Below are positions 11,613 through 12,794 of a DNA stretch of 64,000 nucleotides, piece by piece. The stretch's first letter is position 1. Each line of letters starts with the position of its first letter. A program made the position numbers and the translations under genes. Below the pieces are notes generated by a model that was given only the letters and a program-made list of their open reading frames with translations, did no database searches and was not told the DNA's origin. The stretch is from Octopus sinensis (lineage: Eukaryota): assembly GCF_006345805.1 (NCBI RefSeq), contig NC_042998.1, positions 77,810,001 to 77,874,000 on the forward strand. The letters run 5' to 3'.

Positions 11613-11973
11613 TATATATATATATATATATATAATATATATATATTATATATATATATATTATATATATATATATATATATATATATATATAATATATA
11701 TATATTATATATATATATATATATATATATATATATATATATATATATATTATTAATCAATATAGGGTGGCAAAAAATTTTGTAGAATTTTTTGCCACCA
11801 GTGGCCTAGTGGGAAAAAATTAAATAGTCATAGACCATTTTTAAGTTCAACATCACAATCAAGGAACGGCCATAATAGGCCATTCACCCACTAGAAATAA
11901 CAGCCAAAGCTTCAACCGCAAAATAACATTAATTCCGTAAACCAGGAGAAAATTAAAAAACATTTACCCTGTA

Positions 11974-12080
11974 ATTTCTTATACGATGCACCGTTTCATC
12001 TACTGTTTAATGGTAAACTAACCTGATTAAATTAAATCAAGCCAATCTTCCATAGGCCCTTAGATTCGTCAGTAAGAAAT
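11974..12080 (-). ncRNA. type I hammerhead ribozyme motif (left arm)
   Basis: Reverse complement of 12491-12597. Confidence 0.88.
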
Positions 12081-12490
12081 AGCCAGATCGGAACAGATAT
12101 TTTCACGAGGCATTTCTGTCCCTGCCTCGGCAATATCTGACCTAAAATTTTCAAATCATCGCACTCGCGCCAAATTTATCGGCAGCAAATAAATATAAGC
12201 CGCCGATTCCATTACGGAATTAACCAGAAAATTCATAATTAATCAATATAGGGTGGCAAAAAATTTTGTAGAATTTTTGCCGCTGGTGGCAAAAAAATTC
12301 TACAAAATTTTTTGCCACCCTATATTGATTAATTATGAATTTTCTGGTTAATTCCGTAATGGAATCGGCGGCTTATATTTATTTGCTGCCGATAAATTTG
12401 GCGCGAGTGCGATGATTTGAAAATTTTAGGTCAGATATTGCCGAGGCAGGGACAGAAATGCCTCGTGAAAATATCTGTTCCGATCTGGCT

Positions 12491-12597
12491 ATTTCTTACT
12501 GACGAATCTAAGGGCCTATGGAAGATTGGCTTGATTTAATTTAATCAGGTTAGTTTACCATTAAACAGTAGATGAAACGGTGCATCGTATAAGAAAT
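12491..12597 (+). ncRNA. type I hammerhead ribozyme motif (right arm)
   Basis: AUUUCUUA-CUGACGA-AUCUA…(58 nt)…UAGAU-GAAA-CGGUGCAUC-GUA-UAAGAAAU: 8-bp helix I, intact core, 5-bp helix II base, near-palindromic helix III, GUA triplet. Confidence 0.9.
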
Positions 12598-12794
12598 TAC
12601 AGGGTAAATGTTTTTTAATTTTCTCCTGGTTTACGGAATTAATGTTATTTTGCGTTTGAAGCTTTGGCTGTTATTTCTAGTGGGTGAATGGCCTCTTATG
12701 GCCGTTCCTTGATTGTGATGATATATATATATAATATATATATATATATATATATATATATATATGTATGTATGTATATATATATCATATTATT

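Follow-up and report, generated by a model that had tools for sequence, protein, structure and literature searches.

A near-perfect palindrome of 870 bp (positions 11851-12720) lies within the 64-kb window of Octopus sinensis DNA that was analysed here. It is probably a recent insertion by a short, non-coding unit of the Penelope-like element (PLE) or non-LTR retrozyme type, mobilised in trans by a PLE RT-endonuclease and twin target-primed, with the palindrome as a by-product of integration rather than a selected dsRNA gene. The steps of that mechanism are ones that we infer from the anatomy of the locus, its AT flanks, a high copy number, two recurrent outer ends, and recurrent inversions elsewhere in the family.

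The anatomy of PLE insertions is described in PMC8557442, PMC3846280, and PMC11167929, so the structure itself is already known. It is ordinary for PLEs, and its value is as material for studying PLE integration. Two questions are stated as open in PMC8557442 and PMC11167929: the way in which PLEs build inverted repeats, and the role of their hammerheads. Both would be testable from a genome assembly alone with this family, given its thousands of copies, its two fixed start sites, and junctions that lend themselves to counting. The family appears undescribed in the literature searched: no report of cephalopod retrozymes was found among the matches listed, in a search that took in few subscription papers.

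Anatomy of the palindrome

Aligned without gaps, the arms (11851-12278 and 12293-12720) are 428 nt each and carry two mismatches away from the centre, 11876T/12695C and 11916C/12655T, both transversions. Aligned with gaps, the arms (11851-12281 and 12288-12720), which 6 nt separate, share 431 aligned positions with the same number of mismatches and two gap columns in the T/A run. The observation that began this work, a near-perfect spacerless palindrome with paired hammerheads, is thereby confirmed in the sequence; a motif is present in each arm. The earlier note had put the arm differences at about three, which is close to the two counted away from the centre.

The sense strand is the minus strand in the left arm (11851-12281) and the plus strand in the right arm, the inverted copy (12288-12720). 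Stops interrupt all three sense frames of the left arm, and the element holds no ORF; the RT and GIY-YIG ORF by which an autonomous PLE is recognised is absent. Nor did Pfam match a GIY-YIG or PLE domain in the 15 frames scanned among the window's 72 stop-to-stop frames of at least 100 aa; its matches there were confined to a Tc1/mariner remnant and one weak zf-RVT hit.

The element adjoins (AT)n at both ends, a feature absent from the earlier note, as is the one-sided extension described below. The left tract (11612-11750) comes after a SINE-like repeat; the right (12721-12798) is a simple-repeat tract adjoining the right arm. A target-site duplication is not readable within these flanks. The SINE-like repeat (a label given by impression) is one of a pair, at 11222-11521 and 13486-13785, 93% alike over 300 nt, and the element sits in the AT tract after the left copy. 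Nearby, a broken Tc1/mariner transposase remnant occupies the minus strand at 10553-11206 (Pfam HTH_Tnp_Tc3_2, E 2e-08).

Beyond the palindrome, the left arm continues as a one-sided 3' extension of 98 nt (11753-11850, minus strand). This lies between two points, S1 (11753) and S2 (about 11848-11851); the right arm is without it and terminates at the mirror of S2. The 44-nt direct repeat reported earlier is present at 11749-11792 and 12235-12278, 98% alike, with a spacing of 486. Its second copy of the first 44 nt or so of the unit (12237-12281, minus strand) indicates that copying would have run through one period plus an overlap. The proposal of a pLTR-like or retrozyme-like unit, copied slightly beyond one period and joined to an inverted copy, holds, with a period of 486 nt and 1.09 periods copied. 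The equation of the 44-nt overlap with a PLE "tail" fails: the likelier counterpart of the tail is the 98-nt extension, bounded by two recurrent start points. The locus has no tandem pair of hammerhead units, and so cannot release a monomer circle; contigs from elsewhere are too short to show arrays.

Towards its 3' end, the element RNA has a 14-bp stem-loop (11766-11799, minus strand). Its base is overlapped by a quasi-palindrome, GCCACCAGTGGC (11794-11805), a 12-mer that self-pairs at 10 of 12 positions (-11.1 kcal/mol). The head-to-head junction, GCCGCTGGTGGC (12279-12290), shows one difference from the sense form of this quasi-palindrome and three from the antisense form.

Hammerhead motifs

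Searched with a type I hammerhead descriptor, the window yields three motifs: 12491-12597 on the plus strand, and 12080-11974 and 6966-6888 on the minus strand. The first two are the right and left copies in the palindrome, with predicted cuts after 12589 (GUA) and between 11982 and 11981, respectively. The motif consists of stem I, 8 bp; CUGACGA; stem II, 5 bp and bearing a 68-nt domain; GAAA; a short stem III; and GUA. Among 20,000 dinucleotide shuffles of the arm, two gave any match and none gave one equally good. Rfam reports no hammerhead in the whole window (E<=1) or in the element (E<=10), nor any other family of note. Its microRNA-like matches were set aside, as they fall under the gathering scores and come from hairpins and simple repeats.

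Stem III is self-complementary as well as short, with a computed intermolecular duplex energy of -17.5 kcal/mol. Amphibian hammerhead motifs take a dimeric form (PMC7229834), which the self-complementary stem III would allow here too. When the hammerhead is folded in isolation, the catalytic fold is predicted to lie 2.0 kcal/mol above the minimum. In monomer RNA of arm length, stem I is paired at 0.16-0.26 and stem III at 0.01, making the catalytic fold a minor state. These folding predictions speak against activity of the ribozyme as a monomer.

Both sense copies face away from the centre. RNA read through from either side consequently has the antisense arm first and the ribozyme fully paired, so the ribozyme is predicted to be inactive in that hairpin. 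If the locus is transcribed, a long hairpin could indeed form from either side, as had been suggested; the single sense ribozyme assigned to it would be wholly paired with its antisense copy, and that part of the suggestion falls. Among the family variants listed (40 of 52 rows), none falls on any of 15 core or core-adjacent positions, and variation is seen at the free N7 and at position 11.1; the numbers are too few for significance, and this core-sparing pattern is given no weight.

A large family with recurrent ends

Half or more of the words sampled from the element are present in 20 of 24 listed runs (nine studies, four organism codes), one of which may be the source sample itself. Contigs matching 11745-12350 number 18,087 in X1 (a DNA-type run), 5,423 in X3, 72 in X16, and 187 in X17, with all 29 bins covered in each. 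None of the listed runs is on record as RNA, and because X16 and X17 are RNA only by guess, their contigs are not taken as expression; one X16 contig covers 12129-12263 with no differences. Many matching contigs are 90-99% identical to the reference. Judged from these matches, the unit family is large, dispersed, varied, and very high in copy number, and the locus is one of its young copies. (Contig depth was used neither for copy number nor for deciding between tandem and dispersed copies.) Exact-pattern scans for the element gave no matches in metagenome contigs and none in viral contigs.

The contigs also locate the ends of other copies. Loose ends of (AT)n meet the unit near S2 (about 11848-11851), at 11855 in 21 X1 contigs and at 11851 in one X16 contig, among the 24 listed of 187 loose ends. 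The right end of the palindrome is thus a recurrent start site, since (AT)n meets S2 in other copies as well. Two DNA-type runs show no depth step at S2, contig depth being no measure of copy number. The S1 end corresponds to the same unit position as the start of an old relative at 6645, so that both outer ends of the element are recurrent family ends beside (AT)n.

That relative (6645-7009, minus strand) is an old, 5'-truncated relative of the 486-nt unit; it aligns with a score of 161, where shuffles reached at most 94 and 75. It is a plain truncated monomer. Its hammerhead motif (6966-6888, minus strand) has stems I and III that differ in sequence yet still pair.

Inversions recur in the family. 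Among the 15 X1 joints listed (28 were found), 12 run from the antisense arm, which breaks off at a point that varies from joint to joint, into the mirror arm at 12277-12323; the remaining three are internal deletions. The mapping reference included just the first 60 nt or so of the mirror arm, giving a partial view of these joints. Two X1 contigs depart from the unit at 12083, a little upstream of the hammerhead, and continue for about 131 nt that do not resemble it; these are either flanking DNA or the connection to a longer partner.

Other palindromes in the window

Three further head-to-head palindromes lie in simple or AT repeats of the window, each extended on one side, and two have hammerhead cores. 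The palindrome at 42037-42952 (arms 42037-42403 and 42429-42793; three mismatches in 365) stands between two (AT)n tracts. Each of its strands bears a clean hammerhead core (+42663 and -42167) whose stem III is self-complementary, and its one-sided extension of about 157 nt includes a 36-codon, ATG-started open frame that reaches the element end. The palindrome at 50748-51272 (arms 50864-51060 and 51071-51272; 25 of 197 differ) stands between AT repeats; no hammerhead core was found in it, and its extension of about 115 nt resembles the tail of the studied element. The palindrome at 52850-53448 (arms 52981-53197 and 53219-53448; 35 of 217 differ) has simple repeats on both sides, CTGACGA on both strands, a decayed hammerhead in each arm, and an extension of about 130 nt. 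Two of the three were rejected as relatives of the studied element, being unrelated in sequence: 42037-42952 (score 46, shuffle maximum 74) and 52850-53448 (score 66, shuffle maximum 83). The other, 50748-51272, is at most a distant relative (score 76, shuffle maximum 68).

The layout thus recurs within the window, in these three palindromes, and similar inversions appear among the family joints; it is not an unusual one. The graded arm divergences argue for repeated real insertions, not chimeras. With four palindromes of various ages in 64 kb, such young palindromes could be a background source of dsRNA.

Elsewhere in the window, frames at 22081-23930, 29830-30948, 38718-39548, 55601-56374, and 58410-58892 resemble fragments of non-LTR retrotransposons by eye; the sole Pfam match among them, at 30250-30948, is weak (zf-RVT, E 0.001). 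Nested inverted repeats occupy 61806-63447 (62596-62697 with 63281-63382, 93%; 61806-61870 with 63383-63447, 94%). A sigma-70 promoter scan stayed at chance level, with six matches against 4.2 expected, and a bacterial signal is irrelevant to an animal element.

A model for integration

Twin target priming might have proceeded as follows. PLE protein supplied in trans would cut both strands of the (AT)n tract. The left end would prime cDNA at S1 (11753), and synthesis would run for 529 nt through an intact hammerhead, covering the full 486-nt period plus the overlap. Copying past the full period would need an RNA template that is tandem, circular, or terminally redundant. The right end would prime at S2 (the mirror of 11851) and run for about 430 nt. 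Both cDNAs would halt at the base of the terminal stem-loop, and their 3' ends, carrying GCCACCAGTGGC, would anneal to each other; fill-in would then fix the palindrome. Because both arms cover the same period, a multimeric or circular RNA, or else two RNAs, is required; the template may have been circular or tandem. At the centre, the plus strand carries the sense form, which fits a left cDNA annealing to and copying the right cDNA, and does not fit fold-back of the left strand. Several observations weigh against the model: no autonomous partner turned up in the frames scanned, the extension exceeds the 30-40 bp given for PLE tails, (AT)n permits no reading of a target-site duplication, the contigs listed leave the exact centre unbridged, and depth has no step at S2.

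In the 5' inversion of L1 by twin priming, both target ends prime cDNA, and the products are joined via microhomology. There the two pieces are different parts of one RNA, whereas here both are the same period. No PLE paper on twin priming for inverted copies was found by title or abstract in the literature searched, which included few subscription journals.

Other explanations have to be weighed against this model. The same kind of element could have acquired its mirror arm by fold-back self-priming of one strand, rather than from two target-primed cDNAs. PMC3846280 accounts for palindromic junctions in this way, by self-priming on an antisense template, and the quasi-palindrome allows a DNA hairpin of 4 bp (-2.8 kcal/mol). 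However, fold-back of the left-primed strand would place the antisense loop on the plus strand, with three differences from the actual centre against one; fold-back of the right-primed strand gives the correct loop, but the extra 98 nt then needs a further template switch. The right end coincides, moreover, with a recurrent start site, and other inversions in the family are asymmetric. Fold-back is thus an unlikely source of the mirror arm. It is less likely still that the structure is an assembly or library artefact, a fold-back chimera of one ordinary copy. PLE-type inverted structures do trouble assemblies (PMC8557442), library chimeras can also produce joints in short-read contigs, and no contig bridges the exact centre of this locus among the 32 pieces listed of 23,971. 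Yet the arms differ at two positions and in T-run length, the outer ends and flanks differ, and the centre lacks symmetry. The window also has older palindromes built alike, whose arms have diverged by 13-16%, which is impossible for a chimera.

A palindrome that is itself mobile, a MITE-like fold-back master copied whole, would suit the near-perfect arms, the compact 970-bp unit, and the presence of half or more of the words in 20 runs. We give it very little chance: joint positions vary from copy to copy, the old relative is a plain truncated monomer, and the ends are asymmetric, unlike those of DNA transposons, with the left end 98 nt past the mirror of the right. A different idea, prompted by the earlier note's suggestion that such hairpins could be ADAR or Dicer substrates, is that the locus is kept because it supplies long dsRNA to editing or to silencing by small RNAs. 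Read-through RNA is predicted to fold as a hairpin of about 430 bp (about -775 kcal/mol), and small RNAs from Penelope copies are known (PMC3846280). The ability to form dsRNA, however, is no evidence of function. Neither of the two arm differences is of the A-to-G type, and relevance to ADAR or Dicer finds no support in two transversions. The arms are nearly identical because the insertion is young; older palindromes in the window decay, and no host gene is recognised around the locus. Maintenance as a dsRNA source is accordingly a highly improbable explanation, and integration of a PLE-type element by twin target priming is preferred.

Junctions near the predicted cut

Fifteen junctions were counted (12 plus 3 distinct X1 joints into the mirror arm, with one duplicate dropped and the X3 entry left out). 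Four of them end at 11974-11979, stopping 2-7 nt before the predicted cut (11981/11982), and the 55 nt that follow hold none. Were junctions spread uniformly, such a cluster would have P = 0.0002-0.015, varying with window and range; some 10-nt window holds four of 15 by chance in 5% of trials. The cut site was fixed by structure beforehand, whereas the cluster was spotted post hoc, among the joints listed, and library chimeras are possible. The cluster hints that self-cleaved RNA may serve as template for some copies.

On Penelope hammerhead cleavage and truncated genomic copies, the literature searched yielded PMC11167929 alone. For Poseidon of Anolis, that paper reports no RNA-seq reads ending where the hammerhead cuts; the junctions counted here, which come from DNA contigs, gather slightly before the predicted cut site.

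A bolder model can be offered tentatively, as a possibility that we doubt more than we credit: a very high-copy non-autonomous PLE whose genomic copies would record the chemistry of its integration. Every palindrome would be twin target-primed on a 486-nt RNA, circular or multimeric, with two fixed start sites spaced by 98 nt, and in vivo the 5' end of some templates would be set by self-cleavage at the hammerhead. If this were true, the PLE hammerhead would gain a visible role in transposition, head-to-head PLE repeats would have a testable alternative to antisense self-priming, and arm divergence would provide a dating clock, like that of LTR pairs.

Comparison with known elements

PLE insertions often have an inverted, 5'-truncated copy at the 5' end and a tail of 30-40 bp at one end; PLEs also carry hammerheads in the pLTR, and show an insertion bias toward microsatellites (PMC8557442). 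Inverted repeats that meet head to head in a palindrome, with a tail on one inverted pLTR, have also been described (PMC3846280). The element studied here resembles these endonuclease-bearing PLE insertions (PMC3846280, PMC8557442) in its head-to-head copy, junction palindrome, one-arm extension, type I hammerhead, and AT-repeat target. It differs from them, as they are described there, in three respects: no ORF lies between the repeats; the extension is 98 nt instead of 30-40; and both arms are near the whole unit.

When a PLE protein was given AT-rich DNA in vitro, both strands were cut and extended, and synthesis began at two sites that bound the tail (PMC11167929). That protein belongs to Poseidon of Anolis, which the studied element resembles in having two RT start sites that bound a tail near a stem-loop. 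The Poseidon tail is short and lies in the ORF start (PMC11167929), whereas the extension here is 98 nt. Non-autonomous Chlamys elements such as MRC1 (PMC8557442) are likewise short non-autonomous PLE derivatives with a pLTR-like overlap. Chlamys elements, in that account, are mostly without hammerheads and have algal hosts; the studied element carries hammerhead motifs.

The remaining comparison is with non-LTR retrozymes (PMC7229834; bioRxiv 10.64898/2026.07.22.740005, 2026). The locus differs from these in its lack of a tandem hammerhead pair, and the element is known here from DNA alone; the word "inverted" is absent from the main text of PMC7229834. The likenesses are several: a non-coding structured unit; a size within the range of 51-972 bp; one type I hammerhead per unit; and copying of slightly more than one period. 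Moreover, retrozymes are thought to be PLE-derived (PMC7229834), those of animals from PLE pLTRs (bioRxiv 10.64898/2026.07.22.740005).
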